DNA of 64,000 nt, taken from the NCBI GenBank assembly GCA_009923445.1, contig RFTN01000004.1, forward strand, positions 2,438-66,437, read 5' to 3'. Position numbers and translations under genes: made by a program. Numbering within the stretch: position 1 is the stretch's first letter; each line of letters opens with the position of its first letter. Below are positions 46,080 through 61,909 of this stretch, one piece after another. The notes beneath the pieces were generated by a model, which did not search any database, was not told where the DNA came from, and was given only the letters and a program-made list of their open reading frames with translations. This DNA is from a bacterium (lineage in GTDB: Bacteria; Patescibacteriota; Saccharimonadia; Saccharimonadales; SZUA-47).

Positions 46080-46664
46080 GTGGATAACTTTTTACCAGAT
46101 CATACTATAGATCAAATCATCACAAGTCAGCTGCATGAGAAGGATGTTGAATTTGATAGTAGGCGGCAAGCAAATAATCATTTAGATTTAGGTTACCAAG
46201 AGACTGAGTCACAGTTACGCGCACCTATTTTAAATGCCTTCAGTAAATTGTTGTTTTCAAAAAATATCGAAGTAGATTTTATAATACCCATGCCAGGTAG
46301 TGCCGTAGGCTGGATAGAAGCATTTAACAAGCTACGAGTATATTCACCCGAGATTATTTCATTGCGTAAGGTAACCCGGAGAAAATTTGAATTAATAGAT
46401 GATATAGATGAGAGTAAGTATGCTAATAAGCAAGGAATAGTGTTTGATGATACAACTATTGATGGTGGCTCGGGCGAAGCTGCGGCAGACTATTTAACTG
46501 ATAGTAAATTTGCGATCACCGCCATAGTTTCATTATTTGTCAGGGGCGAACAGCTAGCAAAAAGTAGCTATCCAAGATTTTGTATAGCGCATCGTCTTAT
46601 ACCCTCAAATCTAGACTGGAAAAAATTTAGACAACAGGGTAAAATAGAGCAGTTAAGATCCTAG
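46080..46664 (+). CDS. phosphoribosyltransferase-like protein
   Basis: 'GIVFDDTTIDGGSGEAA' resembles the PRPP-binding loop of type I PRTases. GTG start. The assignment is weak. Confidence 0.4.
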   Translation: MDNFLPDHTIDQIITSQLHEKDVEFDSRRQANNHLDLGYQETESQLRAPILNAFSKLLFSKNIEVDFIIPMPGSAVGWIEAFNKLRVYSPEIISLRKVTRRKFELIDDIDESKYANKQGIVFDDTTIDGGSGEAAADYLTDSKFAITAIVSLFVRGEQLAKSSYPRFCIAHRLIPSNLDWKKFRQQGKIEQLRS

Positions 46665-46667
46665 TTA

Positions 46668-46751
46668 GCGCGAGTGGTGGAATGGTAGACACGCATGCCT
46701 TAGGAGCATGTGCCGCAAGGTGTGAAGGTTCAAGTCCTTTCTCGCGCACCA
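46668..46751 (+). tRNA. tRNA-Leu (anticodon UAG), type II with long variable arm, CCA encoded
   Basis: Manual fold: acceptor GCGCGAG/CTCGCGC, D arm GTGG-AATGGTAGA-CACG, anticodon stem CATGC/GCATG with loop CTTAGGA, variable arm TGCCGCAAGGTGT, T arm GAAGG-TTCAAGT-CCTTT, then A-CCA. It is colinear with E. coli tRNA-Leu. Confidence 0.9.
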
Positions 46752-46760
46752 AAACAATAT

Positions 46761-46790
46761 GCCGACCTTTTTGGTCGGCTTGTTGTTTTG
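46761..46790 (+). terminator. rho-independent terminator after tRNA-Leu
   Basis: Hairpin 'gccgacc ttttt ggtcggc' followed by the T-rich tract 'ttgttgtttt'. Confidence 0.7.
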
Positions 46791-46811
46791 TCGCAAAAAG
46801 ACTTGAACCGT

Positions 46812-46906
46812 AGGGGAGTAGTGCCAGTGGCACTACGAGTAGGAGCGTCACTTGAAAACTTGTTTTCAAAGCAAGCGACGATTCTCAAGTCCTTTCTCGC
46901 GCACCA
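46812..46906 (+). repeat. structured repeat element E1, ending in a duplicate of the tRNA-Leu 3' end
   Basis: The order is 'aggggag', hairpin H1 'gtagtgcc agt ggcactac' (46818-46836), hairpin H3 'ttgaaaac tt gttttcaa' (46852-46869), 'agca', then 'tcaagtcctttctcgcgcacca'. It is homologous to the elements at 52903 and 58385. Confidence 0.7.
46885..46906 (+). repeat. 22-bp direct repeat of tRNA-Leu 3' end (att-like)
   Basis: 'tcaagtcctttctcgcgcacca' is identical to 46730-46751 (half of the T loop, the T-stem 3' strand, the acceptor 3' strand and CCA). Confidence 0.9.
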
Positions 46907-46923
46907 ATTTGACCTAGGTTTGA

Positions 46924-47784
46924 TTAGTTTGTAATTTGGGCAAAAATTAGAACCATTGTTACTACAAAGCCCGTAAACAAGTTTAGCCAAATAAAACGCC
47001 TCCAGGCACGGTTTGTTTTAAACGACTCTTTTTCAGAAACAAATAAGAATTTTTGTATGTTTATTGCATACAGTAAACCGCATAGTGCTATAACTAAGCC
47101 GCCAGTGTTTTGCGCCGCAATTATTACGGCCGCTACTATATACAACACAAAAGCAAACCGCACAGTAGTGGCTGCACCAAGCACAGTTGCTATAGATGCT
47201 ATGTTGGCCTTTTTGTCAGGAATAATATCTTGTACGGCACCAAATGCATGACTGGCCATTCCCCAAAGAAAAAACGCAGCCACAAAAGGCCATGCCGACG
47301 ATGGCCAATGCAGTAGCGAAATCGCATAAACAAGCGGACCCACAAAATGTATGCTACTGGTTATAGAGTCTAGCACGGGCCGTTCTTTAAAACGCAAATA
47401 TGCAACAGAGTAAGCCAACACAAAAAAAGTAAGAGCCAGCAGCACCAAGGCGGGCACAAGCCCCTGTGTAGCTAACAGTATCGCCAAAATAGGCACGTTA
47501 GTTATAACACAGGCCTTAATAATAGTAGGGTGAAACTGCTTTTGTTCGCGCATGCCCTCTATGCCGCCCTTGCGCGGGTTGCGTATATCTGACTCGTAAT
47601 CAAACACGTCGTTAACGCCGTACATTAGCAAGTTATAGGGGAACAAAAAATACAAAGTAGCTAGCAGCCACACGGCCGAATTGCTACCGCCGCACACTAC
47701 ATAACCAGCCGCAAAAGGGTAGGCTGTGTTTGGCCAAGAAATCGGCCGAGATACAAGAACTAATTTACGTAGAGTGTTTATCAT
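46924..47784 (-). CDS. crtEb: UbiA-family prenyltransferase, lycopene elongase-like
   Basis: Polytopic membrane protein with the UbiA Asp-rich motif 'NDVFDYESD'. It is the last gene of the crt operon, with an ATGA overlap with crtYf. Confidence 0.8.
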   Translation of the reverse strand: MINTLRKLVLVSRPISWPNTAYPFAAGYVVCGGSNSAVWLLATLYFLFPYNLLMYGVNDVFDYESDIRNPRKGGIEGMREQKQFHPTIIKACVITNVPILAILLATQGLVPALVLLALTFFVLAYSVAYLRFKERPVLDSITSSIHFVGPLVYAISLLHWPSSAWPFVAAFFLWGMASHAFGAVQDIIPDKKANIASIATVLGAATTVRFAFVLYIVAAVIIAAQNTGGLVIALCGLLYAINIQKFLFVSEKESFKTNRAWRRFIWLNLFTGFVVTMVLIFAQITN

Positions 47785-48119
47785 GATCGCTTGTCTTTGC
47801 TGGCAAATTTATTCCAAAGCGATGGCACTAGTATAGCCGCTATTACCGCATAAAAGAAATCTTCAATAGGGGCCTTACCTACATAAATACCTAGTATTTT
47901 AGAAGTGTCGTAGTCGCAGATTTTTAATGCAACAATTAGTGAGTCGAATATAGTAGTTAGTACCAGCAAACTTATAAACGTATATAGCCACGCTTTTGAG
48001 GGCTTTTTAACACGTATGCTAAACAGTAAAACAACTAGTAGCACAACGATTATGTTAAATACTAGGTACGTTTGCATACACGACTCCAGCCCGTATAAAG
48101 CACCAACGACACATAGCAC
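47781..48119 (-). CDS. crtYf: heterodimeric carotenoid cyclase subunit (small membrane protein)
   Basis: A ~100-aa, 3-TM protein with 'PIEDFFY', typical of small lycopene/C50 cyclase subunits. The likely true start is ATG at 48077. Confidence 0.7.
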   Translation of the reverse strand: MLCVVGALYGLESCMQTYLVFNIIVVLLVVLLFSIRVKKPSKAWLYTFISLLVLTTIFDSLIVALKICDYDTSKILGIYVGKAPIEDFFYAVIAAILVPSLWNKFASKDKRS

Positions 48120-48382
48120 AACAAAAATAAGAAGAACAATTCTTCAATAGGGAACTCGGGGGCGATTCTAATCGGCAGCGTATATTTGCTGCCACCATGA
48201 AAAAATATTCCAAGTGCTATACCCAGTACATCCCAAACTATAAAAACTAGCATGGTAATACCTAGTGTTTTGTAAGTTCTTTTTTTATCAAACCAAAAAG
48301 CAAGCTTATATTTTTTATCTAGCACTAACATGCCAGAAATACTTACCAGCAGCGCCAAAAGGTAGTAGAACTGTTCAATCAT
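48062..48382 (-). CDS. crtYe: heterodimeric carotenoid cyclase subunit (small membrane protein)
   Basis: A 106-aa, 3-TM protein with the 'PIEELFF' motif. Its start overlaps the crtI stop. Confidence 0.7.
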   Translation of the reverse strand: MIEQFYYLLALLVSISGMLVLDKKYKLAFWFDKKRTYKTLGITMLVFIVWDVLGIALGIFFHGGSKYTLPIRIAPEFPIEELFFLFLLCYVSLVLYTGWSRVCKRT

Positions 48383-49898
48383 GGCTGTCTACTAACCTTT
48401 CAATACTAGCAACTTGACCACCTTTTTTATTGCCCGCAATGCGCTTGTATACAAGCTCGGCACCTATGAGGCACATTGGCAGGCCAACACCTGGTACTGT
48501 GTTGCCGCCGACATAATAGAGGTTAGAGAGTTTACGACTTTTGTTGGGGGTTCTAAAAAATGCACTTTGTTTTAAAAGATGCGACTGACCAAGCATTGAA
48601 TTTTGCCATGAGTTAAACGCGCTGCCAAAATCGTTGGGGCCAAATAGGCGCTTTGTTTTAAGTCTATTTACTAAATCAACTCCTGTCATAACAGCTATTT
48701 GCTCAATATAGTGGTTGCTAAGCGACTCAAGATCGGCATCGTTAATGTCAATACTAGCCGGCAGGGGGACAAGTACAAAAACGTTTTCGCAGCCTTTGGG
48801 TGCAACTGCAGGATCTGTTTTGCTTGGCGTCGATATATAAATAGAGGCTTTTTTAGGAATAGTTTTAGTCGTGTAAATTGCATCAAAGTTATGTTGCCAT
48901 TCGTCAACAAACAATAAATTGTGATGTTCGAATTCAGGAATTTTTCCGCTTACGCCTAAGTACATTAGCAGTGCGCTTGGCCCGGGTTGCTTTTTCTTCC
49001 AATAGCTTGCATCAAAACTACGATCTTGTTTTTTAAGTAGCTTTGTTTCTGTATAATGCATATCTGCATTCGAAACTACAATATCCGCCTTAACAATACT
49101 GTCATTTTCAAGTTGCACGGCCGTAGCCTTACCCTCGCTTGATTGTATTGCGCTTACAGGGCTATTGTAGTGGTAGGTTACCGATAGTTTTTTACTCATT
49201 GCAACTAAACTTTGTATTATTGTGTAAATTCCGCCTTTGGGGTAAAAAACACCTTCTTTAAAATCAAGCGCACTCATTAGGCTGTATAGAGCCGGCGCAC
49301 TAAAAGGCGATGTTCCTAAAAACACCATAGGGTATTCTAAAATTTGCTTTAATCGTTGGTCGCTAACATAAGACGACACATAAGAGTCTATAGAGCGAGT
49401 CGTCATGCGCAGCAGGCTTGGAGCATTTTTTAGTATGTCGGTGTGAGTTAAGTCGCTAAGCGTTTCGAAATTTGTGTATAAAAAGTGCTTTAGTGACATG
49501 CGGTACATATGTTCGGACTTTTTAACATATGACTCTAGGGCGGCACCGGCACCTTTTTCTATGTGCTCAAAGGTTGCTGAGTCAGTTGCTAGGTCGCTTG
49601 TAATTGTTATGGGAGCCTTAGCTTCAAAAAATACTTTATAGGCTGGGTCTAAACGCTTTAGGCTTAACCAGTCGTCGATATTTTCGTTAAGTAAACTAAA
49701 GTAGTGTGCAAATACTTCGGGCATTAAATACCACGACGGCCCACTATCAAAAATAAACCCGTCAAGTTCAATCAGGCCGGCTCGTCCTCCAGCAGTGGGG
49801 CCTTGCTCGTACACATGTACGTCGTAGCCAGCTTTTGCAAGCAAATTTGCTGTTGCTATGCCACCAATACCTGCGCCTATTACAATAACTTTACTCAC
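48375..49898 (-). CDS. crtI: phytoene desaturase
   Basis: FAD motif 'VIVIGAGIGGIATANLLAKAG' and C-terminal 'YYVGGNTVPGVGLPMCLIGA'. The GTG start at 49898 forms a GTGA overlap with the crtB stop. Confidence 0.9.
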   Translation of the reverse strand: MSKVIVIGAGIGGIATANLLAKAGYDVHVYEQGPTAGGRAGLIELDGFIFDSGPSWYLMPEVFAHYFSLLNENIDDWLSLKRLDPAYKVFFEAKAPITITSDLATDSATFEHIEKGAGAALESYVKKSEHMYRMSLKHFLYTNFETLSDLTHTDILKNAPSLLRMTTRSIDSYVSSYVSDQRLKQILEYPMVFLGTSPFSAPALYSLMSALDFKEGVFYPKGGIYTIIQSLVAMSKKLSVTYHYNSPVSAIQSSEGKATAVQLENDSIVKADIVVSNADMHYTETKLLKKQDRSFDASYWKKKQPGPSALLMYLGVSGKIPEFEHHNLLFVDEWQHNFDAIYTTKTIPKKASIYISTPSKTDPAVAPKGCENVFVLVPLPASIDINDADLESLSNHYIEQIAVMTGVDLVNRLKTKRLFGPNDFGSAFNSWQNSMLGQSHLLKQSAFFRTPNKSRKLSNLYYVGGNTVPGVGLPMCLIGAELVYKRIAGNKKGGQVASIERLVDSHD

Positions 49899-50725
49899 CT
49901 TATAAATACTCCGCTTATTAGTATCTTTGCAAGTAGCCAAAGTTTATAAAAACTATTCAGACGCACGCGTTCGGACTTAATAGTTGATAGTGTTGCAGCG
50001 TCTAGTTTTTTAAGTAGCTTGCTGTAATAAGCATAGCTTAAGCTCACCGCTTTTTTAGACGAACGGGGCAACGTATGCAGGGCTTTAGTGGCCGTTTTAA
50101 AGTCGCTGTATATGTCTGCCGCAACGGCCTGTTTAGCGGTATCGTCAAACGTGTCATAGCTATAACCCGGAAAATAAAAGCGTTTACGCACCGTGTAGTC
50201 ATTTTGAATATCTCGCAAAAAATTAACTTTTTGAAACGCTGAACCCAATGCCCGTGCACCATGCTCAAGGTTGTTGTACATAGTTTTGTCATTTAAGGTA
50301 AATACTTTTAAGCACAACAAGCCCACAACTTCGGCTGAGCCGTAAATGTACTTGTCGTAATCTTTTTTTGAATACGTCATGGGCTGCAGATCCATACGCA
50401 TACTGTCAAAAAAGGGCGTTATTAACGACCAGCTTATATCAAATTCTTTTACAGTTACTACAAAGCTTTGAATAATTGGGTTCGTGCTGTAGTTTCTTTT
50501 AACGGCGGTGCATAGTTCGGTCTCTAACTCGTCAAGCGCATCTTTTGCGGCTACACCTTGGTAGGTGTCTACAATTTCATCGGCTATTCGTACTAAGCCA
50601 TAAATTGCATATATATGCTTGCGAACGGGTTTTGCAAACAGCTTTGAGCTTAAGCCAAACGAACTACTATAACGCAGGGTCAGTAGCCGGCTTATTTGGT
50701 ACGAAACATCATTGTATAGGTCCAT
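49895..50725 (-). CDS. crtB: phytoene synthase
   Basis: Squalene/phytoene synthase motifs 'YGLVRIADEIVD', 'YIYGSAEVVGLL' and 'AFQKVNFLRDI'. Confidence 0.9.
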   Translation of the reverse strand: MDLYNDVSYQISRLLTLRYSSSFGLSSKLFAKPVRKHIYAIYGLVRIADEIVDTYQGVAAKDALDELETELCTAVKRNYSTNPIIQSFVVTVKEFDISWSLITPFFDSMRMDLQPMTYSKKDYDKYIYGSAEVVGLLCLKVFTLNDKTMYNNLEHGARALGSAFQKVNFLRDIQNDYTVRKRFYFPGYSYDTFDDTAKQAVAADIYSDFKTATKALHTLPRSSKKAVSLSYAYYSKLLKKLDAATLSTIKSERVRLNSFYKLWLLAKILISGVFIR

Positions 50726-50728
50726 AAT

Positions 50729-51784
50729 TTAAAATTCGCGCACGGTAGATTTATTAATAAGTTCTGTAAATGCAGCTTGAGCCGATTTGTTTATGTGTAG
50801 CTGGGCTAGTGCTTGACTAGCGTTGTTTGAGTATTCTAAAACCTTGTCTTTTGCTTTTTTGTAAGCACCGCTTGCCACCAATAGGTCGCGTATAATGTCT
50901 GCCTCTTTTTCGCTACAGCTGCTATTACCAAAAATTGAATTAAATGTTGCTAAATCTTTGGCATTTGAGTTCTGGTTAAAATATTCTACTAAAATAGTCA
51001 TTTTACCCTCACGTATATCGCTTGTAGTTGATTTACCTGTTACGGCTTTGTCGCCAAATGTGCCAATAATGTCGTCGGTAAACTGAAAAGCTATGCCTAA
51101 GTTTTCGGCATACACCCGCAAAAGATCTTGCTCGCTAGTTGGAGCACCCGCCAATACGGCGCCAGTTAACAGTGGCCCTATAAAGCTATAGCTAGCAGTT
51201 TTGTATCGGGCAACTGTTGCGGTTTGAATTTCCCCAGTTGGTTTAAAAGAAATCTCGTTATCGAGTAGTTCGCCGGCGGTCACCTCAAAAATACTCGTCG
51301 ACAACAACTGTTGGCACGCGCTCAGTGTATCTTTAGAAACATGTGCCGCAAGCATCGTTTTATATGCTGCAGATATAAGCAGGTCACCACCAAGCAGTGC
51401 AGCACTCAGTGCAAAATGTTGGCGACTTTTTTCATTGGCAACAAATTGGCTATAGGTTTGGCGATAGGCGCCGTCAATGTTTGGTACACCGTAGCGCAAT
51501 GTATCGTTGTCTATAATATCGTCATGAATAAGCATACTTTGATGAATAAGCTCCTGAGAAAGCGCCAGCGGCATAACAGCGGCTATGTCGCTACCACCAT
51601 ATGCCCTATATGCTAAAAGCGTCATTTTGGGGCGTAAGCGTTTGCCACCCGAATTAACAAGCCTTTGAATTTGTAACCAAAGCAGTTCGTAGTTTGGGTG
51701 TATGGTTTTAGCACTCGCTAGCTGCTCTTCAAAAAAAAGGGCGAGTGATTCTTCGATTTTATCTTTGTGGTCATGTAAATGCAT
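50729..51784 (-). CDS. crtE: polyprenyl (geranylgeranyl) diphosphate synthase
   Basis: FARM 'LIHDDIIDND' and SARM 'FQFTDDIIG', plus 'GGKRLRP'. First gene of the crt operon. Confidence 0.85.
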   Translation of the reverse strand: MHLHDHKDKIEESLALFFEEQLASAKTIHPNYELLWLQIQRLVNSGGKRLRPKMTLLAYRAYGGSDIAAVMPLALSQELIHQSMLIHDDIIDNDTLRYGVPNIDGAYRQTYSQFVANEKSRQHFALSAALLGGDLLISAAYKTMLAAHVSKDTLSACQQLLSTSIFEVTAGELLDNEISFKPTGEIQTATVARYKTASYSFIGPLLTGAVLAGAPTSEQDLLRVYAENLGIAFQFTDDIIGTFGDKAVTGKSTTSDIREGKMTILVEYFNQNSNAKDLATFNSIFGNSSCSEKEADIIRDLLVASGAYKKAKDKVLEYSNNASQALAQLHINKSAQAAFTELINKSTVREF

Positions 51785-51818
51785 ATTATTCTTTAGTATA
51801 TTTTATACTAAATCAACT

Positions 51819-51879
51819 AAGTAAGTTCTTTATTGTTAGTTAAAAGCGCTATATAACTATGGGTTAAGTAAAAAACGTA
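51819..51879. repeat. repeat C (upstream flank of crtE), homologous to right half of 54801-54941
   Basis: 'aagtaagttcttt...ataactatgggttaag...' aligns with gaps to 54878-54941, including an exact 14-mer 'aactatgggttaag'. Confidence 0.7.
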
Positions 51880-51921
51880 CAGGATACCCTGAAGTAGGAC
51901 ACTTAAGCTTGTATTGTTATC

Positions 51922-52480
51922 CTACTTAAGTATACCTCGTTGGCTGTTTTGTAGCCCAAGACTTGTCTTGGGCGATCGTTTAGGTACGTCAGTACCTGAG
52001 CGATCTTTCATTTGTAACTGTTTGCAAATCTGTATTCTTCGGTATGAAGTGGCGTATCCATTTGTTGGTATTCTCAACCAGTCCTTTCTCCTAGCTATGG
52101 TATGGATGCGTAAAGTAGAATGGAGCTCCAGGCAACTGTTCATAGTATCTCCAGTGGGTAAAAGCTATGTCGTTGTCGGTCAGGATAGTCTTGACTCTAA
52201 CTCCATCAAACAGCTTACGTAGGGCTCGCGAGAGCTACGGTTTTGTTCGATTGGGCATTAGCTCTATCATAGTTTGTTTGCTTAGAGTGTCGACTTCCAC
52301 AAGTAACACAGCCTTGCCACCGCTCTTTGTCGGGCTGACGATGAAGTCGAGTTCGTAGTGACCAAGCTCATCACGCAGGATGCGTTCTTCAATCCATCTA
52401 CGTTCACCAATGATTCCCCGGCGGTACATAGCTTACCGTCGTTTAGGCTTACCTTTGAAGTACAGCTTATGTTGCAGAAT
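51922..52480 (-). pseudogene. IS30-family transposase remnant (N-terminally truncated, frameshifts and an in-frame stop)
   Basis: Minus-strand fragments read 'IEERILRDELGHYELDFIVS...AVLLVEVDTLSK', 'KTILTDNDIAFTHW' and 'FTHPYHS*EKGLVENTNKWIRHFIPKNTD', where TAG replaces the conserved Trp. Together they match the IS30 DDE core in three different frames. Confidence 0.8.
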
Positions 52481-52581
52481 CCGGGAGCTTGACAAAAGTA
52501 AAAGTATTATTACTTTACACGGATCTCCTCGTACAGAAGTATACATATTCATCTAGCAACTTAAGTGATATACTAACGTTC

Positions 52582-52803
52582 ATGAACGATGATACTATTC
52601 AAGATTTAAAGCAATTCATATCTGCAACCGTACATCAAGAAATTGCTGGTTTAGAAGAAAGGCTAGAAAACAAGATAGATAGTAGATCCGATGAAATTCT
52701 TTCTGCAATCGGCGATACTACAAGCGATAGGTTTGATTCAGTTGAAGAAGATGTAAAGAATCTCGACACAAGAGTCACAAGACTCGAATCTAACCCAGCG
52801 TAA
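52582..52803 (+). CDS. small coiled-coil protein
   Basis: 73 aa counted from internal Met32 of the track ORF. Heptad-like 'IAGLEERLENKIDSRSDEILSAI...VKNLDTRVTRLES'. No family recognised. Confidence 0.4.
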   Translation: MNDDTIQDLKQFISATVHQEIAGLEERLENKIDSRSDEILSAIGDTTSDRFDSVEEDVKNLDTRVTRLESNPA

Positions 52804-52902
52804 TACTTTTTTCATGATAAGTTTTAATTATAGCTTTTTTTATTATGTAGCTAAACCAGCACAAAGACTAAATACCGATGAACAGTAAGCATTTCTGTAG
52901 CT

Positions 52903-53058
52903 GCGGGGTGAGAAAGTCCAGTGGACTTTAGCAAGGCCGGAAACTGATTTCAAGCTTGCTTGGAGTAGGCTTGAGGCGGGGTCGCGAGTAATCGTGACTT
53001 TGCATACTTTTGCACCTGCAAAATAAAAGTATGTCGAATAGGCTAGCGAAGCAGGCCA
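52903..53058 (+). repeat. structured repeat element E2
   Basis: 'gcggggtgag', hairpin H1 'aaagtcc agt ggacttt' (52913-52929) and 'agcaagg' form the same module as E1 and E3. A possible degenerate 'gtcgaat...aggcca' end lies at 53030-53058. There is no plausible coding frame. Confidence 0.55.
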
Positions 53059-53184
53059 TCGAAAAGTGACTTCCTGATGATACTGTTGAAGCACAGCAAA
53101 TTATTGAAGAACTAGTTAGCGGGGTCATTGAATTCTATATTACAATTGAAAAAATTATGAAAGTGTTGTATTATATTATTCCTA

Positions 53185-54675
53185 ATGTTTGGTAGAAAAG
53201 ATAAGACAATTGAACAAGCACATGAATCGGTTGCGCCGATTAAGCTACCTGAAGCTCCAGAAGAACTTACACTTGCCCCTGCGAGTATAGTAACTTATGA
53301 AAATTTGGACATATCTGATGTTTATGAACAAGTACTTTCTGTAAACGGCAGCGTTAAGCTGATCAACACAAGACTGCCTCTTCCAGCAGATGACGTAACG
53401 CTTAATGTTGAGACTGACGGAGATACTTTTGACGTATATGGAACAATAAGCTTGCTAGATAAAAAACGTGCTGCAGGGGTTGTTAAAAAAGTTGCTAAGC
53501 TTATAGAGAAGTCTAGTGAAGATACGGGCGGCACTATAACTACATACAGGGATGGTTTAGACGTAAAGGATCAAAACGGAACGCGCCTCCTTATCGCTCA
53601 AGGTGCCTATTACTCGGAAAACGAAAGCATCATCGTGAGCACTGGTAAACTTAAGGATGGATACGACTCGACATTGGATGTATTTGAGTCTCCTGAGCTA
53701 ACTAAGGAGCTATTTAAAGCGACAGTAGAACAGACGCTTGGGGCAATGGCGATGGTGTTGAATGTTGCATACGCAATGGAAGAAAACCAAACTGGGCGCG
53801 AAGTTACTTTGCGCGTTGTCCAGAAAAATTCTCAAAAATTGCAAGATACAAAATCACAAGAAGAAGTTGAGCAATTGGTAAATGATGGGGCACATCCAAA
53901 GCTAACACTTGATGATATTGGTGGCCAAGCTGAAGCAAAAGAAGAGATCAAGAGTTTGGCGTACGCATTATCACACCCAGAATCATACCGAAGGTGGGGT
54001 GCACAGCCTCCTAAAGGCATACTTTTTGAAGGTCCGCCCGGCACAGGCAAGACATTATTGGCTCGTGTAGTGGCGTCAGAGGCAGATGCTTCGTTCTTCC
54101 CAGTATCGGTAGCAGATGTTACTTCTAAGTGGTATGGCGACTCTGAAAAAAAGATCAAACGAATATTCGAACAAGCAGCCCGAGCAGAGAAGGCTATTAT
54201 ATATTTTGACGAACTTGATGCTTTATCGCCATCGCGCAACAGCTCTCACGAGGCAACGAGTCGCGTAGTCAGCATAATCTTGCAGTGTATGGACGGGTTC
54301 CTAGCTAAAGGAAATGTGTTTGTTATTGCATCGACAAATAATGCAGATAAGATAGATGAAGCATTACTTCGTACTGGCCGCTTTGATAGGAAAATATACA
54401 TAGGTTTGCCGGATAGTGAAGCACGCAAATCTATCTTTAACATACATATGAAAAAAGCATGCGAAACAGCAGATAGACAACTATTCGATGAGATTGATCT
54501 TGACGAACTTGCTGAGGCCGCAGAAGGAATAAGTGGTGCGGATATTAAGGAAATGGTAAGAAGAACGCTCGAACAAAAAGTGCGTACAGAAATGATTTCT
54601 AAACAGGCGAATGACAACCCTGTCACTACACAGGATATATTGAATCAGCTATCTGCTTACAAAAAGATAAATTGA
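53185..54675 (+). CDS. AAA+ ATPase (classic FtsH/CDC48-type AAA module) with uncharacterised ~240-aa N-terminal domain
   Basis: Walker A 'GPPGTGKTLLAR', Walker B 'IIYFDELDAL' and a second region of homology 'ASTNNADKIDEALLRTGRFDRKIYI'. The N-terminal half has no recognisable motif. Confidence 0.8.
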   Translation: MFGRKDKTIEQAHESVAPIKLPEAPEELTLAPASIVTYENLDISDVYEQVLSVNGSVKLINTRLPLPADDVTLNVETDGDTFDVYGTISLLDKKRAAGVVKKVAKLIEKSSEDTGGTITTYRDGLDVKDQNGTRLLIAQGAYYSENESIIVSTGKLKDGYDSTLDVFESPELTKELFKATVEQTLGAMAMVLNVAYAMEENQTGREVTLRVVQKNSQKLQDTKSQEEVEQLVNDGAHPKLTLDDIGGQAEAKEEIKSLAYALSHPESYRRWGAQPPKGILFEGPPGTGKTLLARVVASEADASFFPVSVADVTSKWYGDSEKKIKRIFEQAARAEKAIIYFDELDALSPSRNSSHEATSRVVSIILQCMDGFLAKGNVFVIASTNNADKIDEALLRTGRFDRKIYIGLPDSEARKSIFNIHMKKACETADRQLFDEIDLDELAEAAEGISGADIKEMVRRTLEQKVRTEMISKQANDNPVTTQDILNQLSAYKKIN

Positions 54676-54800
54676 CCTTTAACATAGGGTTAAATTACGG
54701 TTTTGTATCGTGCATCAGATAAGAATAATCTTAAACTTGTTACTCCTGAACCTACGCTAAGTAATAACGTACTGATAGGTAATAATGTATTTGCTACTTC

Positions 54801-54941
54801 ACAAAGCCCGAAAACAAGTTTAGCCAAATAAAACGCCTCCAGGCAGGGTTTGTTTTAAGCGACTCTTTTTCATAAACAAGTAAGTTCTTTGAATGTATGT
54901 TAGTTGCGTTATAAAACTATGGGTTAAGCGGAAAATACGTA
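54801..54941. repeat. composite ghost junction: copy of crtEb 3' end fused to copy of crtE upstream flank
   Basis: 54801-54880 matches 46964-47043 (76/80 by manual alignment). 54878-54941 matches 51819-51879 with gaps. The switch point is at 'aagtaagttcttt'. Confidence 0.85.
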
Positions 54942-55513
54942 ACGTTTGCATCATGAAAAGGGAAGGCGTTCCAGCTTGGGCAGCTTTGGTGTACTAAATG
55001 GTCAAAAACATCCTCTGGTGTTTGGGGCCCCTGCATATGTTTAGGCAGCCAAGAGCTTGTCAGGGTAAATAAATCGCCGTGTTGGTTAAGTGGTACCAGT
55101 CCTACACCGTGCGGCTCGCTGTCAGGGCTGTATATGATATTTTGTTCTAGATCGTGCTCTTCGGTTGCGTCTATATCTAGTATTACGCCGTACCCATTTT
55201 TAACCATATGACGTAGTAGCTTACAAAAACTTTTCTCGCTTGATTCGTTGGCAAAGCCAAGGTCACGCCAAGAATCTAGCCCAATATCTGTCGCTATCAT
55301 GTTCATTGCAACGGTCATAAGGCTATTTTTACGATGTTTAGTAAGGTGTGCAGACTCGTCAATTGCACAAAACCCAACGTATGCAAGATACGACTCTGTG
55401 CTAACTTCGTTAGTACTAAGCCTATCGAAGGCCGTTGGGTAACACACCGGCAAGGGAGCGTCCGGTCCGGTTAACCCCTTGCGCACTTTGTCTTGGTAGC
55501 TTTGCTCACTCAT
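54917..55513 (-). CDS. hypothetical protein (198 aa)
   Basis: Intact ORF with no confident motif. Its last codons ('...PLNP*') lie inside the repeat, which also occurs, degraded, upstream of crtE. Confidence 0.5.
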   Translation of the reverse strand: MSEQSYQDKVRKGLTGPDAPLPVCYPTAFDRLSTNEVSTESYLAYVGFCAIDESAHLTKHRKNSLMTVAMNMIATDIGLDSWRDLGFANESSEKSFCKLLRHMVKNGYGVILDIDATEEHDLEQNIIYSPDSEPHGVGLVPLNQHGDLFTLTSSWLPKHMQGPQTPEDVFDHLVHQSCPSWNAFPFHDANVTYFPLNP

Positions 55514-55572
55514 ATAGAATGAGACAGATTATCTGTTAGTTTACGTTTTTATGCAAGGTATTAACCGGTTTG

Positions 55573-55610
55573 TTAGGCAAAAAACTGTATAAACAACCAG
55601 GTGGAAGGGC
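55573..55610. repeat. degraded copy R1 of the DUF2177 gene 3' end
   Basis: 'ttaggcaaaaaactgtataaacaaccaggtggaagggc' compared with 61472-61509 gives about 33/38 identical. Confidence 0.5.
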
Positions 55611-55636
55611 ACCGGGTTCTGGTCTCATCGTTCGTA

Positions 55637-55664
55637 GGTTTAAATTCCTTATCCTCAGCCAAAT
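55637..55664 (+). repeat. tRNA-3'-end-like motif, copy a
   Basis: 'ggtttaaattccttatcctcagccaaat' has a T-loop-like segment followed by '...CCNCAGCCAAAT'. Confidence 0.5.
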
Positions 55665-55773
55665 TGATTATTCAGCTAATACAACCAAACCTCATATCTG
55701 GAAGTTGAAAAGTTCGAATACCCTTATCTCCTAGGAAAAGTTACTCATTCCTGACTCAAAACCAAAAAACCCG

Positions 55774-55802
55774 TTGACATAAAGTTAATCTTTAGTTAAA
55801 CT
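55774..55802 (+). promoter_or_regulatory. putative promoter of the Phd/RelE operon (leaderless transcript predicted)
   Basis: TTGACA (55774-55779), a 17-nt spacer, then TAAACT (55797-55802). The ATG at 55809 is 7 nt downstream of the -10. The spacer contains the near-palindrome 'aagttaatctttagttaaactt'. Confidence 0.55.
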
Positions 55803-55808
55803 TAGTGC

Positions 55809-56036
55809 ATGAGTACAAATAAATCTGTTAGCCTTAAAGAACTACGCGAACAGTTCCCTAAGTATATTGAAGCTATTTCTAAGGGACAAAGCTTTACGGT
55901 AGTTAAACGATCAAAACCTATTTTTCAGTTAAACCCAATCAGTGACGAAGGCGATTGGCAAACTATTGCTGATTTTACTACCATCGAAGATAATGGCGTT
56001 AAAGCTGAAGATGTACTGGCAGTACTAGAGGCATAA
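55809..56036 (+). CDS. type II antitoxin, Phd/YefM family
   Basis: 75 aa. 'VSLKELREQFPKYIEAISKGQSFTVVKRSKPIF' is typical of the Phd/YefM N-terminal fold. Confidence 0.75.
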   Translation: MSTNKSVSLKELREQFPKYIEAISKGQSFTVVKRSKPIFQLNPISDEGDWQTIADFTTIEDNGVKAEDVLAVLEA

Positions 56037-56042
56037 TTTATT

Positions 56043-56288
56043 ATGGCTGATAAGATAAAAAAGCTTTTAGCCAAACTTAAATCTCAAGAGCGTGAATTAG
56101 TTAAGTTGTTGATATTGCGAGTCAAATTAGACGATACCCTAGGGCTAGATATTAAGCAACTAAAAGGTCATTCTGATCTTTTTAGAGTACGAAAGGGAAG
56201 GTTAAGAATTGTATTTAGAAAAGATGCAAACAGCTTTTTAATTGTAAGAATAGACCGCCGGAACGAAAAAACTTACAAAGATCTTTAA
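56043..56288 (+). CDS. type II toxin, RelE/ParE superfamily
   Basis: 81 aa. 'LKGHSDLFRVRKGRLRIVFRKDANSFLIVRIDRRNEKTY' matches the RelE/ParE core pattern. It lies 7 nt after the antitoxin gene. Confidence 0.75.
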   Translation: MADKIKKLLAKLKSQERELVKLLILRVKLDDTLGLDIKQLKGHSDLFRVRKGRLRIVFRKDANSFLIVRIDRRNEKTYKDL

Positions 56289-56304
56289 AACAAGTTCAGC
56301 CAGG

Positions 56305-56339
<35 letters not shown>

Positions 56340-56346
56340 CTACAAA

Positions 56347-56374
56347 AGTTAGAATCCATCATCCCCAGCCAAAT
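56347..56374 (+). repeat. tRNA-3'-end-like motif, copy b
   Basis: 'agttagaatccatcatccccagccaaat'. Confidence 0.55.
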
Positions 56375-56540
56375 TTGTTTTATAGTATTTTCATCTGTTA
56401 TTTCGGTTTTGATTTTTCGGTTATTGTGAAATAATTCAATCATTTGTAAAATCCTTATCTTTTAATTAAGTTCGAATCCTTTATGCCCTTTTACGGCTAC
56501 CCATATATATGCTTAAGTAAAAATCTGCTAATATAATCCT

Positions 56541-56690
56541 ATGAAGAAATATGATTTTTTAATTCTATTAGTAGTTTCAGCGTTTTTCGGATTTTTTATA
56601 GCAACAGCAAAAGACAGGGCTAGGTATGTTATTTCGATCTTACCCGTAATCGCTGTAATCATTTTAGCTTTTAGACAGAGAAAGAGTTAA
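56541..56690 (+). CDS. possible small hydrophobic peptide (49 aa)
   Basis: 'MKKYDFLILLVVSAFFGFFIATAKDRARYVISILPVIAVIILAFRQRKS' has two predicted TM segments. It is below the track's size cutoff and has no clear RBS. Confidence 0.3.
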   Translation: MKKYDFLILLVVSAFFGFFIATAKDRARYVISILPVIAVIILAFRQRKS

Positions 56691-56849
56691 GGTAAGTTCT
56701 TCTAGAGATCCATTCCTTTAGTATTGCTGTCGGACTAGCGTGTCTTAACTAGAAAGCACCGTTCCATCGGGATACTTTCTTATTAATAGTCATCACAGTC
56801 CGTCATTATGGTTTCCTTTTTCAAACATTGTGAAGAAGTTCATGAACTT

Positions 56850-56903
56850 GTAAATCCTCATCTGTAAAAGTTCCATTAACGTCCTGCCTCCCCGGCCAAA
56901 TTG
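56850..56903 (+). repeat. tRNA-3'-end-like motif, long variant, copy d
   Basis: 'gtaaatcctcatc|tgtaaaagttccattaacgtcctgcct|ccccggccaaattg' is the same ends as the short copies, with a 27-nt internal segment. Confidence 0.7.
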
Positions 56904-57035
56904 AATTTCAACTAGTCCACCAAACTTTCTTATATGCTGATGTTTTGTTGTTTTTTAATTATGATCAGTGAGCTACCTATATAGGTAATGCCTTATATTG
57001 AAACTTTGTATAGTTACTGATATACTTATAAAGTT

Positions 57036-57947
57036 ATGAACTACCAAGAATATCTAAAATCAATCATTAAAGCGTCAGGCTGGTCTCAGGAGCAACTTGC
57101 ATCGCAATTGGGCGTAACTTTCGTAACTGTAAATTCCTGGATAAATAGTAGATCTAAACCCAGAGCAAAAGCACTGGTACGTATAGAAAAACTCTATTTC
57201 GACACTGTTGGTACCGAAACGGTAGATACTAATATACTCGCTAAGCTAAAAGCTCAGGCCCTAAAGAGCAAAATTACCCCTCAGCAGCTAGTAAGCAACA
57301 AAGAATTACTTGATAAACTAACACTTTACTTAACCTATCATACGAATACTATCGAAGGTAGTACTATGACATTATCTGATGTCGGGGATGTTATCTTTGA
57401 TCGCAAAGTATTGTCTAACCGCACGGCAATTGAACAGGCAGAGGCACGCAACCACCAGGCAACACTCCATTGGTTAATAGATTTACTAAATCAAGATAAA
57501 AAATTAGTAATAAGCGAAGGACTTATATTAGATACCCATTTGCGACTTATGAATGGAATTATTAGTGATGCCGGTAAATACCGTAACCATGCAGTTAGGA
57601 TTCTAGGCTCGAGGGTGGTATTGGCAAACCATTTAAAAGTTCCTGAACTTGTTAAGGAACTTAGTGGGGACGATTCGCTAAAGTACGATCTGATCTCCAA
57701 ACTAGCTCGAACACATGCACAATTTGAGCAGATTCACCCTTTTAGCGATGGCAACGGTCGAACGGGTAGATTGATCATGCTTATTCAGGCCCTAATTGAC
57801 AGTAAGGTTCCGCCCCTAGTGCGTAAAGAACGCAAGTTTGCATACTATAAGGTCCTTGAAATTGCTCAAACAAAAGGTATTTATGAGCCTCTAGAATTAT
57901 TTATTGCTGAATCTATGTTATTTAGTAACGAGCTCCTCAGTAGTTAA
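57036..57947 (+). CDS. Fic-domain protein with N-terminal XRE-type HTH
   Basis: HTH 'SGWSQEQLASQLGVTFVTVNSWINSRSKP', Fic motif 'HPFSDGNGRTGRL' and an upstream 'TNTIEGS' (S/TxxxEG-type) helix. Confidence 0.85.
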   Translation: MNYQEYLKSIIKASGWSQEQLASQLGVTFVTVNSWINSRSKPRAKALVRIEKLYFDTVGTETVDTNILAKLKAQALKSKITPQQLVSNKELLDKLTLYLTYHTNTIEGSTMTLSDVGDVIFDRKVLSNRTAIEQAEARNHQATLHWLIDLLNQDKKLVISEGLILDTHLRLMNGIISDAGKYRNHAVRILGSRVVLANHLKVPELVKELSGDDSLKYDLISKLARTHAQFEQIHPFSDGNGRTGRLIMLIQALIDSKVPPLVRKERKFAYYKVLEIAQTKGIYEPLELFIAESMLFSNELLSS

Positions 57948-58011
57948 AGAGCCGTCTTCCGTAGAGTCATCGAGCAGTTTCTGGATTTCTTCTATATCAT
58001 CAACGTTCAGA

Positions 58012-58060
58012 AGATCCTCATCTGTAAAAGTTCCATTTACGTTCTGCCTCCCCAGCCAAG
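58012..58060 (+). repeat. tRNA-3'-end-like motif, long variant, copy e
   Basis: 'agatcctcatctgtaaaagttccatttacgttctgcctccccagccaag' has about 43/46 identity with copy d. Confidence 0.7.
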
Positions 58061-58105
58061 CATAAGCATTATACACACAACGAAATTTATGCTAGTCTAA
58101 AACAC

Positions 58106-58282
58106 ATGAAAGAAAACATCCCTACTCCAGATTCTAATGCTACGTCAGAAAATATTACTGATTCCATCGAAGCTCAAAGTTTACCGCTAATAAGACTTAT
58201 CCCTTTACCTAGGACATTGGCGCTTGGTGAGCAGATGGAGCCTGGAGTTGCTTATACTCCTCGCATTACTATTCCAAGATAA
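58106..58282 (+). CDS. possible small protein (58 aa)
   Basis: 'MKENIPTPDSNATSENITDSIEAQSLPLIRLIPLPRTLALGEQMEPGVAYTPRITIPR'. It is followed by a strong terminator and is below the track cutoff. Confidence 0.3.
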   Translation: MKENIPTPDSNATSENITDSIEAQSLPLIRLIPLPRTLALGEQMEPGVAYTPRITIPR

Positions 58283-58304
58283 AGTTGCGAAGTACGTCTA
58301 CTAA

Positions 58305-58317
58305 GGGCAGCCAAATT
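58305..58317 (+). repeat. tRNA-3'-end-like motif, short copy g
   Basis: 'gggcagccaaatt' lies directly before the terminator hairpin. Confidence 0.4.
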
Positions 58318-58345
58318 AAAAACCGTCCGTTTGGGCGGTTTTTAA
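58317..58345. terminator. bidirectional rho-independent terminator
   Basis: 'aaaaaccgtcc gttt gggcggttttt' has an A tract, a GC hairpin and a T tract. Confidence 0.75.
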
Positions 58346-58384
58346 TTTGCTTGAGTTGGAGGATTCGAATTCCGAGTGAGCATT

Positions 58385-58499
58385 CGGGGTGAAAACTGCC
58401 AGTGGCAGTTTGCAAGGCAATCTTCACTTGCAAACTAGTTTGCAAAGCAGAAGTTGCGGGCCTGCAGGATGCAGGTCGAATCCCTCATCCCCGGCCAGA
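58385..58499 (+). repeat. structured repeat element E3, ending in tRNA-3'-end-like motif (copy f)
   Basis: The order is 'cggggtga', H1 'aaactgcc agt ggcagttt' (58393-58411), H2 'ttgcaag...cttgcaa', H3 'ttgcaaac ta gtttgcaa', 'agca', then '...ggtcgaatccctcatccccggcca'. Confidence 0.7.
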
Positions 58500-59265: not shown

Positions 59266-59397
59266 GCCCTGGCCTTAGGCAAAAAACTTAATAAACAACC
59301 AAGTGGCAAGGCTACATACACCAGCTGTTAGCACTGTGCCCCATAGCAAATCAACCACGGTTACTTTTATTGGCCAGTCTTTATATACGGCTTGCGA
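59266..59397 (-). repeat. copy R2: displaced 3'-terminal fragment of the DUF2177 gene
   Basis: 132 bp with about 120 identities to 61463-61594. The reverse strand still reads '...KDWPIKVTVVDLLWGTVLTAGVCSLATWLFIKFFA*'. Homology ends abruptly at 59397. Confidence 0.9.
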
Positions 59398-61471: not shown

Positions 61472-61909
61472 TTAGGCAAAGAACTTAATAAACAACCAGG
61501 TGGCAAGGCTACATACACCGGCCGTTAGCACTGTGCCCCACAGCAAATCAACCGCGGTTACTTTTATGGGCCAATCTTTAAACACTGCTTGCGATGTTAA
61601 ATCAAAGGTACTGTAGGCAACTAGGCCAAATAGCGCCCCGCGTGTGGCAGCATACATAACCGACTTGTCGGCAACAGCTGGCTGCACCACAAACACCACC
61701 AACCCCACAATATATATGACATAAAACAGCCCAGCGGCCAGTAAGTTAGGCTTGTCTGTCATGAGGTGGCCAATGTTACTTTTATAAAACTTTGGCGCAA
61801 CCTTAACCAACCAAACACTATCTAGTGCCAATAAACTTGCAAAACTTAAGCCAAATAATTTTATAAATTCCATACGTATAAGTGTAGGGTAGTGTTTATG
61901 CTTCAGCAA
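61472..61909 (-). CDS. DUF2177-type membrane protein
   Basis: 'LALDSVWL...FY...IGHLM...LFYVIYIVGLVVF...GALFGLVAYSTFDLT...WP...DLLWGT' matches my recollection of DUF2177. The likely start is Met13 (61873). Its 3' end is the repeated att-like sequence. Confidence 0.7.
   Translation of the reverse strand: MLKHKHYPTLIRMEFIKLFGLSFASLLALDSVWLVKVAPKFYKSNIGHLMTDKPNLLAAGLFYVIYIVGLVVFVVQPAVADKSVMYAATRGALFGLVAYSTFDLTSQAVFKDWPIKVTAVDLLWGTVLTAGVCSLATWLFIKFFA

Follow-up and report, generated by a model that had tools for sequence, protein, structure and literature searches.

A conserved folded repeat in tRNA fragments of Saccharibacteria, tentatively the core of miniature integrative units

What is the hairpin-bearing sequence of about 100 nucleotides (nt) that occurs three times in a 64-kb stretch of a Saccharibacteria genome, twice directly before a tRNA 3' end? 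The stretch, referred to here as the window, comprises positions 2,438 to 66,437 (64,000 nt) of contig RFTN01000004.1 (GCA_009923445.1; Saccharimonadales). It is part of a 114-kb metagenomic scaffold, has a G+C content of 41.8%, and is also present in contigs of metagenome-assembled genomes (MAGs; GCA_010027835.1 and others). A first-pass annotation, made from the sequence alone, had designated the three copies E1, E2, and E3 and had suggested a small RNA, a recombination-site structure of a miniature integrative element, or a tRNA-derived mobile repeat. This reading was supported in part: the copies are folded, conserve pairing, and are linked to tRNA genes, but they are not tRNA derived as a whole, and the proposed switch between two hairpins is not supported. 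We file the element as a miniature, non-autonomous, tRNA-targeting integrative or mobile repeat, with a real chance of something more unusual.

The motif CCAGTGG occurs four times in the 64 kb, and three of these occurrences are the hairpin centers of E1, E2, and E3. A covariance model (CM; R1), built from 86 unrelated loci plus E3 and run over the whole window with filters off, returned exactly these three copies where they had been annotated (Table 1); the next match on the plus strand (11.7 bits; E, 0.5) was not credible. E3, which is itself in the model seed and forms a row of the family alignment, has a fold z-score of -3.3. E1 is decayed: helix 3 is missing, and GGGGAG and GAGTAGG stand in place of the consensus GGGGTGAG and GCAAGG. 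It adjoins tRNA-Leu(TAG), the only tRNA gene called in the window (ARAGORN and Rfam), directly on the downstream side and is closed by an exact 23-nt repeat of the 3' end of that gene (46730-46752 = 46885-46907). E3 is closed by a tRNA-Gln 3' end, from T-loop to CCA, with one mismatch. Repeat and alignment analyses thus bear out the tRNA ends reported after both copies, and terminator prediction and the inverted repeat confirm that both lie directly behind hairpin terminators. No promoter-like site was found for E1 or E3, so that a stand-alone small-RNA gene, one of the possibilities raised initially, is unlikely for these two copies; a recombination-site structure of a miniature integrative element and a mobile repeat fit best.

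TABLE 1 Features around E1, E2, and E3 (positions are those of the window)
Feature	Position	Strand	Basis or remark
Intact tRNA-Leu(TAG), the working gene beside E1	46668-46751	+	ARAGORN; Rfam tRNA, 58.6 bits; promoter-like site at 46617-46645
Terminator-type hairpin GCCGACC-TTTTT-GGTCGGC in the tRNA-E1 interval	46761-46779	.	Detected on both strands; lies in the middle of a larger, imperfect palindrome
A', tRNA-Leu T-arm and 3' part in inverted, degenerate form (gtcgcaaaaaGACTTGAACC = reverse complement of GGTTCAAGTC..GCGA)	46790-46809	+	Read from sequence
E1, decayed element; helix 1, 46818-46836; helix 2 apical part, 46852-46869	46812-46884	+	CM (match 46812-46888; 33 bits; E, 4e-6)
Displaced tRNA-Leu 3' fragment (T-loop to CCA plus 1 nt)	46885-46907	+	Exact direct repeat
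E2, "long" subclass; helix 2 with conserved GCCGGAAAC...GUUGAGGC internal loop	52904-52999	+	CM (49.2 bits; E, 5e-10); subclass alignment
Extra hairpin (53002-53033), then degenerate tRNA-3'-end-like tail TCGAAT...GGCCA (53034-53058)	53001-53058	+	Only the TCGAAT and CCA ends are recognizable
Decayed tRNA-Gln, tRNA positions 11-74	55597-55661	+	Local alignment to intact Saccharibacteria tRNA-Gln; no call by ARAGORN
tRNA-Gln 3' fragment, 22/24	56348-56371	+	Separates small cassettes
Weaker tRNA-Gln 3' fragments	56882-56898, 58049-58058, 58308-58313		Separate cassettes
tRNA-Gln 3'-end remnant GGGCAGCCAAAT, 5' of the terminator upstream of E3	58305-58316		
Hairpin terminator upstream of E3	58312-58349	.	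Inverted repeat, 17-nt arms, 94%
A' GGAGGATTCGAATTCCGA (inverted T-arm region), loop GTGAGCA, and short direct left-flank copy TTCGGGG	58358-58389	+	Read from sequence; layout as in other loci
E3, intact consensus copy with helices 1, 2, and 3	58385-58476	+	CM (101 bits)
Displaced tRNA-Gln 3' fragment	58477-58497	+	Alignment

In Rfam 15, only tRNA-Leu passed in the window, and E1, E2, and E3 had no relevant match even at E values up to 10. E3 can be folded as a cloverleaf ending in GCCA; we rejected identification as a transfer-messenger RNA, tRNA-Sec, or allo-tRNA because its acceptor-like pairing belongs to the target, both ARAGORN and Rfam were negative, and the element is multicopy.

The three copies belong to a much wider set. 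The pattern GGGGTGA-N5-7-CCAGTGG-N5-7-GCAAGG, searched in species-representative genomes, yielded at least 117 loci (8 kb each; designated by L numbers below). Among the listed matches, approximately 108 were true hairpin-bearing copies, nearly all of the named ones from MAGs of Saccharibacteria/Saccharimonadales, and the few from other phyla lacked the hairpin. A CM scan beyond the window, which the first-pass annotation had called for, gave many more copies (R1; 127 matches in 100 loci); stretches of 8 kb frequently held two or three, and a single genome often has several. No Rfam 15 model matched the family, and a literature search found no description of the element. The family is thus large, Saccharibacteria specific, and apparently undescribed so far.

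The consensus (~88 to 92 nt) consists of TGA, helix 1, GCAAGG, helix 2, CGGG, and helix 3. Helix 1 (8 to 10 bp) carries the loop CC-AGU-GG, helix 2 has ~17 bp, and helix 3 (7 bp) carries a GAA-type triloop. The element proper extends from TGA through the end of helix 3. The GGGG at its left is target sequence, because a copy in a tRNA D-loop (L067) reads GCCAAGCG(TGA...GAC)AAGGCA where the native sequence is GCCAAGTGGTAAGGCA.

Pairing was assessed on a structure-blind MAFFT alignment of 87 distinct 92-nt cores. Positions set by the search pattern were not counted as conserved, and the covarying stems fall outside them. In the three-helix fold, 95.0% of the cells were paired (74.6% in shuffles), and only 32 to 45% were paired when partners were slid by 1 to 3 columns. 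Cells changed on both sides numbered 575 versus 173 in shuffles; none of the 500 shuffles reached the observed count, and compensatory changes were present in 24 of the 34 pairs. This statistical test, also called for at the outset, upholds the view that pairing rather than sequence has been kept, as expected of a folded RNA or single-stranded DNA. Given that G.T wobbles far exceeded A.C mismatches (168 versus 27; ~6:1), the tRNA-sense strand is the folding strand. At one paired position, 72 of the 87 copies have G.U. Regarding the individual hairpins proposed for the window, H1 is helix 1 of the family, with its covariation intact, and H3 is the apical part of helix 2. H2 (TTGCAAG/CTTGCAA) fared differently: it was paired in 57.6% of cells across the family versus 57.2% in shuffles, with no covariation. 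The mutually exclusive H2/H3 fold falls with it, and the switch is not conserved.

The long subclass to which E2 belongs was aligned separately (12 sequences), and 14 of its 22 pairs showed compensatory changes. Its invariant GCCGGAAAC...GUUGAGGC internal loop (e.g., window positions 52936 to 52975) resembles a kink-turn-type protein-binding motif. In L009 (minus strand), ~150 to 250 nt upstream of the element copy, a second unit follows tRNA-Val and carries a different insert of ~100 nt between the inverted copy and the tRNA 3' repeat, with GCAAGG kept and other hairpins. This insert may be a divergent relative of the element that the model missed.

The element always lies within tRNA-derived sequence, in the same orientation as the neighboring tRNA. 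In a context census of 144 copies, the nearest tRNA was on the same strand in 105 of 108 cases, and at least 15 tRNA species served as hosts. The 5' flank was the 5' part of an intact tRNA at the same locus in 45 copies, while the 3' flank was the 3' part of an intact tRNA in 34, with a start 19 to 22 nt from the CCA end in 30. Next to the element is an intact tRNA of matching identity, of which either the 3' part or the 5' part is duplicated. The suggested link to tRNA 3' ends and island boundaries stands. By contrast, the element as a whole did not originate from a tRNA; it is a separate module of ~90 nt placed in tRNA fragments, and the tRNA-like end once counted among its modules is target sequence.

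At all sites compared, the element directly follows a G, and the next 1 or 2 target bases (GT, GC, or TT; usually GT) are missing. Most insertions are in the T-loop (tRNA-Gln, Val, Leu, Lys, Arg, Tyr, Ser, and Gly). Others are in the anticodon loop of tRNA-Pro(GGG), the variable loop of tRNA-Ala and tRNA-Val, and the D-loop and anticodon stem of tRNA-Gln, and one site is the CGGG|GT|CGCC junction inside another copy of the element. The final base of helix 3 might equally belong to the target, which leaves the junction boundary ambiguous by 1 nt; we therefore set aside conclusions on exact enzymology from the junctions.

Residence in tRNA loops in the sense orientation might indicate a tRNA intron, self-splicing or protein spliced, and tRNA genes of Patescibacteria frequently harbor group I introns (PMC13011429; the nearest paper that we found, on a different subject). 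Like bacterial group I introns, archaeal bulge-helix-bulge introns, and rRNA intervening sequences, the element occupies loops of stable-RNA genes and replaces a few loop bases. However, the interrupted copies are dead, truncated tRNAs beside an intact gene, and the target is 1 or 2 nt short once the element is removed, so that excision cannot restore the tRNA. The 90-nt element also has no group I or other ribozyme core and no Rfam intron match at E values up to 10. We consider an intron very improbable.

Two mirror-image arrangements surround the intact tRNA, each a gene-less unit of 155 to 200 nt. In the downstream type (E1 and E3), the intact tRNA is followed by a hairpin, an inverted degenerate copy of the tRNA 3' part, and a 7- to 10-nt loop; then come the last 7 to 10 bases to the left of the insertion point, the element, an exact repeat from T-loop to CCA, and a second terminator. 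The upstream type consists of a promoter, the tRNA 5' part, the element, 7 to 10 target bases, an inverted uninterrupted target, a second promoter, and the intact tRNA. Of the downstream-type units, 22 of 31 had a significant inverted target copy, as had 21 of 36 upstream-type units. When the downstream-type unit is drawn in circular form, everything but the element is self-complementary. Both types were found around one tRNA in L011, L067, L089, and L114, with an element on either side of the tRNA in L067 and L011. The outer fragments in L089 have mutually fitting acceptor strands (CGGGGTG/CACCCCG), whereas CGGGGAT/ATCCCCG is the acceptor pair of the working tRNA that they enclose. The outer fragments thus stem from an older gene that was split, and the working copy came with incoming DNA.

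On these grounds we favor, tentatively, the reading that the element is the folded core of miniature, trans-mobilized integrative units, which regenerate the tRNA and seed cassette arrays via a single-stranded intermediate. The conserved single-strand fold, the strict tie to tRNA fragments, the regeneration of an intact tRNA, and the several kinds of insertion site are established; the remaining steps are inferred. Each unit would be a gene-less miniature integrative element that recombines with a tRNA gene at the edge of the element. The tRNA part needed to keep the gene working would come with the incoming DNA, and the old part would be displaced and remain attached to the element. This replacement logic is that of tRNA-targeting integrative elements, here seemingly in both polarities. 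The intermediate would be single-stranded DNA, because a duplex circle of 155 to 200 nt is too stiff, folding of the element is strand specific, and both element flanks can base pair with the inverted copy, the layout left by single-strand integration of CTX-type elements. The folded intermediate would recreate a duplex copy of the target from which the element protrudes as a loop at the crossover, comparable to CTX-phage attP or integron attC. Catalysis would be provided in trans by a recombinase encoded elsewhere in the genome, and repeated events at one tRNA, with or without cargo, would build cassette arrays such as the E1-E3 interval.

Comparison with known systems shows where this proposal is familiar and where it is not. 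As with the attP sites of CTX phages and IMEX elements, the hybrid site at one junction has an inverted target copy ~100 nt away, so that folding of a single strand can mimic the duplex target, and the recombinase would be host supplied. The two pairing inverted half-sites of a CTX-type attP are present in the above-mentioned 22/31 and 21/36 units and are not universal. Here, unlike in those systems, the target is a tRNA gene rather than dif, no phage genes are present, and a conserved 90-nt structure separates the half-sites at the crossover. Integron attC sites share the conservation of fold rather than sequence in a (here candidate) recombination site and the use of one folding strand, and they likewise bound small promoter-less cassettes that pile up beside a fixed primary site. 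The element differs in lacking IntI, attI, and Pc (the window encodes no integrase, and none recurs near the 108 listed loci among the best 25 Pfam families per scan). The consensus of the 87 copies has no R/L boxes or GTTRRRY core; it has three hairpins with the motifs TGA, GCAAGG, and CGGG rather than one bulged stem. Moreover, the primary site is a tRNA loop, and most units are gene-less. The closest parallel in target choice is provided by tRNA-targeting integrative elements, the integrase-less CIMEs, and tycheposons. They share the direct repeat from T-loop to CCA (23 nt at E1; 34 copies in the census), the regeneration of the tRNA by element-borne sequence, and the gathering of cassettes (toxin-antitoxin and Fic) beside the tRNA. 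The units described here differ from them in their small size, the lack of an integrase, the mirror-image type that duplicates the 5' part plus a promoter, the insertions in D, anticodon, and variable loops, and the conserved folded module at the junction.

A search for a protein partner was negative. Open reading frames (ORFs) near the element in the 108 listed loci included no recurrent family except housekeeping neighbors of particular tRNAs, and no ORF family, such as one for a tyrosine or serine integrase, was linked to the units. The apparent top neighbor family was rejected because it consists of ORFs that read the element itself antisense. Pfam scans of 192 cluster representatives showed no integrase, transposase (Y1 included), or reverse transcriptase among the best 25 families per scan, and none of the three was found anywhere in the 64-kb window. 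Regarding a phage or plasmid attP, the strict pattern gave only two chance matches in viral contigs, and none of the 120 loci found there with the relaxed pattern matched a hidden Markov model of the element. A blastn search against phage and plasmid collections found nothing similar.

These results bear on whether the element is a non-autonomous single-strand DNA transposon of the IS200/IS605-PATE or REP/RAYT kind, moved by an HUH (Y1) transposase encoded elsewhere. Such an enzyme would paste the element 3' of a short G-rich motif on the lagging-strand template, and the tRNA duplications would be secondary repair products. The insertions of ~90 nt into the D-loop of a dead copy and into the element itself are clean, with neither target duplication nor terminal inverted repeats, and fit this origin, as do the constant orientation, the G-run at the left, the hairpin at each end, and single-strand-specific folding. 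PATEs and REP/BIME sequences are likewise small, hairpin-rich, strand-specific, and multicopy. On the other hand, peel-and-paste transposition is precise, whereas here the left G or G-run is present but GT, GC, or TT is lost at every site compared. The two end hairpins are dissimilar, and three unlike hairpins form the junction; the element is specific for tRNA loops; and no Y1 transposase is near any copy among the listed Pfam families. Regular regeneration of an intact tRNA with a duplicated promoter or terminator is also not predicted. We judge this origin improbable.

A more serious rival is that the element acts as RNA, given that features of the fold resemble RNA and that every target is a tRNA loop; we rate it as somewhat unlikely. 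The element would be cotranscribed with tRNA genes, as a 5' leader (upstream type) or a read-through trailer (downstream type), and would be a functional noncoding RNA or an RNA-level mobile element. In the latter variant, it would enter exposed tRNA loops (D, anticodon, variable, and T) by ligation or reverse splicing and return to DNA by reverse transcription and recombination. This reading accommodates the folding of the tRNA-sense strand, the strongly conserved G.U pair, the location of upstream-type copies immediately after tRNA promoters, and insertion sites that are all loops of the folded tRNA and not one DNA motif class. A circular downstream-type unit would, as RNA, form a rod with a branched conserved domain, as do viroid-like RNAs. 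Yet E1, E3, and most downstream-type copies are right behind strong terminators with no promoter-like site, no reverse transcriptase is among the listed neighbors, and no known ribozyme family matched (Rfam; E up to 10). In addition, the interrupted tRNA copies are partial and 1 or 2 bases short, so that RNA excision cannot restore a tRNA, and the same-strand orientation is equally expected from recombination geometry. The stronger claim, that the element is an autonomous ribozyme-like or viroid-like RNA (a circle of 155 to 200 nt with a rod of target and inverted copy, inserting into tRNA loops and fixed in DNA by reverse transcription), is in our estimation quite unlikely.

Several loci carry signs of movement. 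L067 contains a simple insertion in the D-loop of a dead tRNA copy, one element is nested within another at CGGG|GT|CGCC, and identical tandem units occur in L015, L039, and L121. Some matches are within ~200 nt of the start of the locus, which may be a contig end. Copies in one genome are mostly 55 to 80% identical, and the closest relatives are in other genomes, often at another tRNA; the family is thus old and diverse rather than the product of a recent burst. Cassette arrays bounded by units were found in L058, L121, and the window. Units bracket single genes downstream of tRNA-Lys in L058 and L121. E3 closes the window array, which starts with a decayed tRNA-Gln, the probable original anchor, and is split into cassettes by tRNA-Gln 3' fragments (Table 1). 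Since these fragments stand between cassettes without the element, recombination at tRNA ends occurs without it too. Four short cassettes follow the decayed tRNA-Gln (55597 to 58497), namely, a Phd-like antitoxin with a partner ORF, small ORFs, a helix-turn-helix (HTH)-Fic gene, and a 58-amino-acid ORF.

Could ordinary processes account for such arrays? The element would then be a passive conserved spacer or terminator-associated structure, and the tRNA duplications would result from template switching at hairpins and from homologous recombination of transformed DNA, with tRNA or element as homology arms. The palindrome is centered on the terminator, the identical units that flank a gene in L121 are consistent with homologous recombination, and Saccharibacteria are naturally competent. 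What is left unexplained is the presence of the same 90-nt module in four different tRNA loops and in itself, always after a G, the strong purifying selection on three helices in every copy, and the more than 15 tRNA hosts. We therefore give this explanation little probability.

Integration of miniature units remains our preferred reading, and several points weigh against it. The catalytic step is pure inference, no recombinase having been identified at the loci; the Pfam scans covered the best 25 families each, so a rare integrase neighbor could escape. The loss of 1 or 2 target bases is unlike the usual products of tyrosine or serine recombinases or HUH enzymes. The conserved G.U pair, the CUUG-type loops, and the purine-rich junctions suit a functional RNA just as well, and the model gives no reason for a conserved 90-nt fold at the crossover point. 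The inverted target copy is absent or decayed in approximately one-third of the units: those of L051 carry a longer direct left flank in its place, and the variable-loop insertions in tRNA-Ala and tRNA-Val are without it. T-arms are themselves palindromic, so some inverted-copy scores are inflated. Finally, the 55 to 80% identity indicates that most insertions are old, and no before/after pair was seen.

Saccharibacteria genomes are ~1 Mb or less, and their tRNA genes are single copy. Despite this, many copies of a folded 90-nt module persist intact in tRNA fragments of these bacteria. If the units are miniature integrative elements, they would represent protein-less, fold-dependent targeting of tRNA genes that builds the accessory islands of the phylum, which in the window carry carotenoid synthesis, toxin-antitoxin, and Fic genes. 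An RNA-level element would instead be a new class of mobile RNA and, if autonomous, a protein-less mobile RNA parasitizing tRNA genes of ultrasmall bacteria. The elements explain assembly breaks and miscalled tRNA pseudogenes in TM7 MAGs, the CM is a ready marker of island boundaries, and the unit could serve as an integration tool in the newly tractable Saccharibacteria.

The accessory region of the window (46.9 to 58.6 kb) carries a carotenoid operon, an AAA ATPase, the Phd-like antitoxin with its small partner ORF, the HTH-Fic protein, and TspO. Outside it, the genes are housekeeping genes (transketolase, UvrB, GatCAB, DnaE, NusA, ClpB, RadA, TyrRS, and RecG, among others). The carotenoid set (46924 to 51784; minus strand) comprises a polyprenyl synthase, a phytoene synthase, a desaturase, two small lycopene-cyclase-like subunits, and a UbiA prenyltransferase. 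At one of the other loci, an element copy has a heliorhodopsin gene as its neighbor. Presence/absence polymorphism of the E1 island was considered and rejected: other assemblies with the same flanking protein show the same layout or break at repeats.

Further repeats occur in the window. A segment of 7.8 kb with the carotenoid operon, E2, and the AAA ATPase lies between the two copies of an 84-nt direct repeat (94% identical; 46964 to 47047 and 54801 to 54884), which are candidate cassette boundaries. Both copies hold ...GTTTAGCCAAAT with a hairpin after it and resemble the ...CAGCCAAAT remnant ahead of the terminator that precedes E3; the UbiA ORF extends at its 3' end into the first of them. 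A (TA)n microsatellite (56306 to 56337) is immediately 5' of the tRNA-Gln 3' fragment. The NCBI MAG contig RGUJ01000032 terminates around this microsatellite, and a Logan contig terminates at the 84-nt repeat near E1, which indicates that assemblies are broken by the window repeats. A 38-nt repeat, TTAGGCAAAAAACT.TATAAACAACCA.GTGG.AAGG, occurs three times (55573 to 55610, 59275 to 59312, and ~61480 to 61540), and its first copy continues into the decayed tRNA-Gln. A 46-nt repeat (93%; 56854 to 56899 and 58014 to 58059) terminates in a tRNA-Gln-like 3' end. Translated from the opposite strand, it would begin a small acidic peptide (..NGTFTDEDL..), and a similar layout is present in L035 (~200 to 270).

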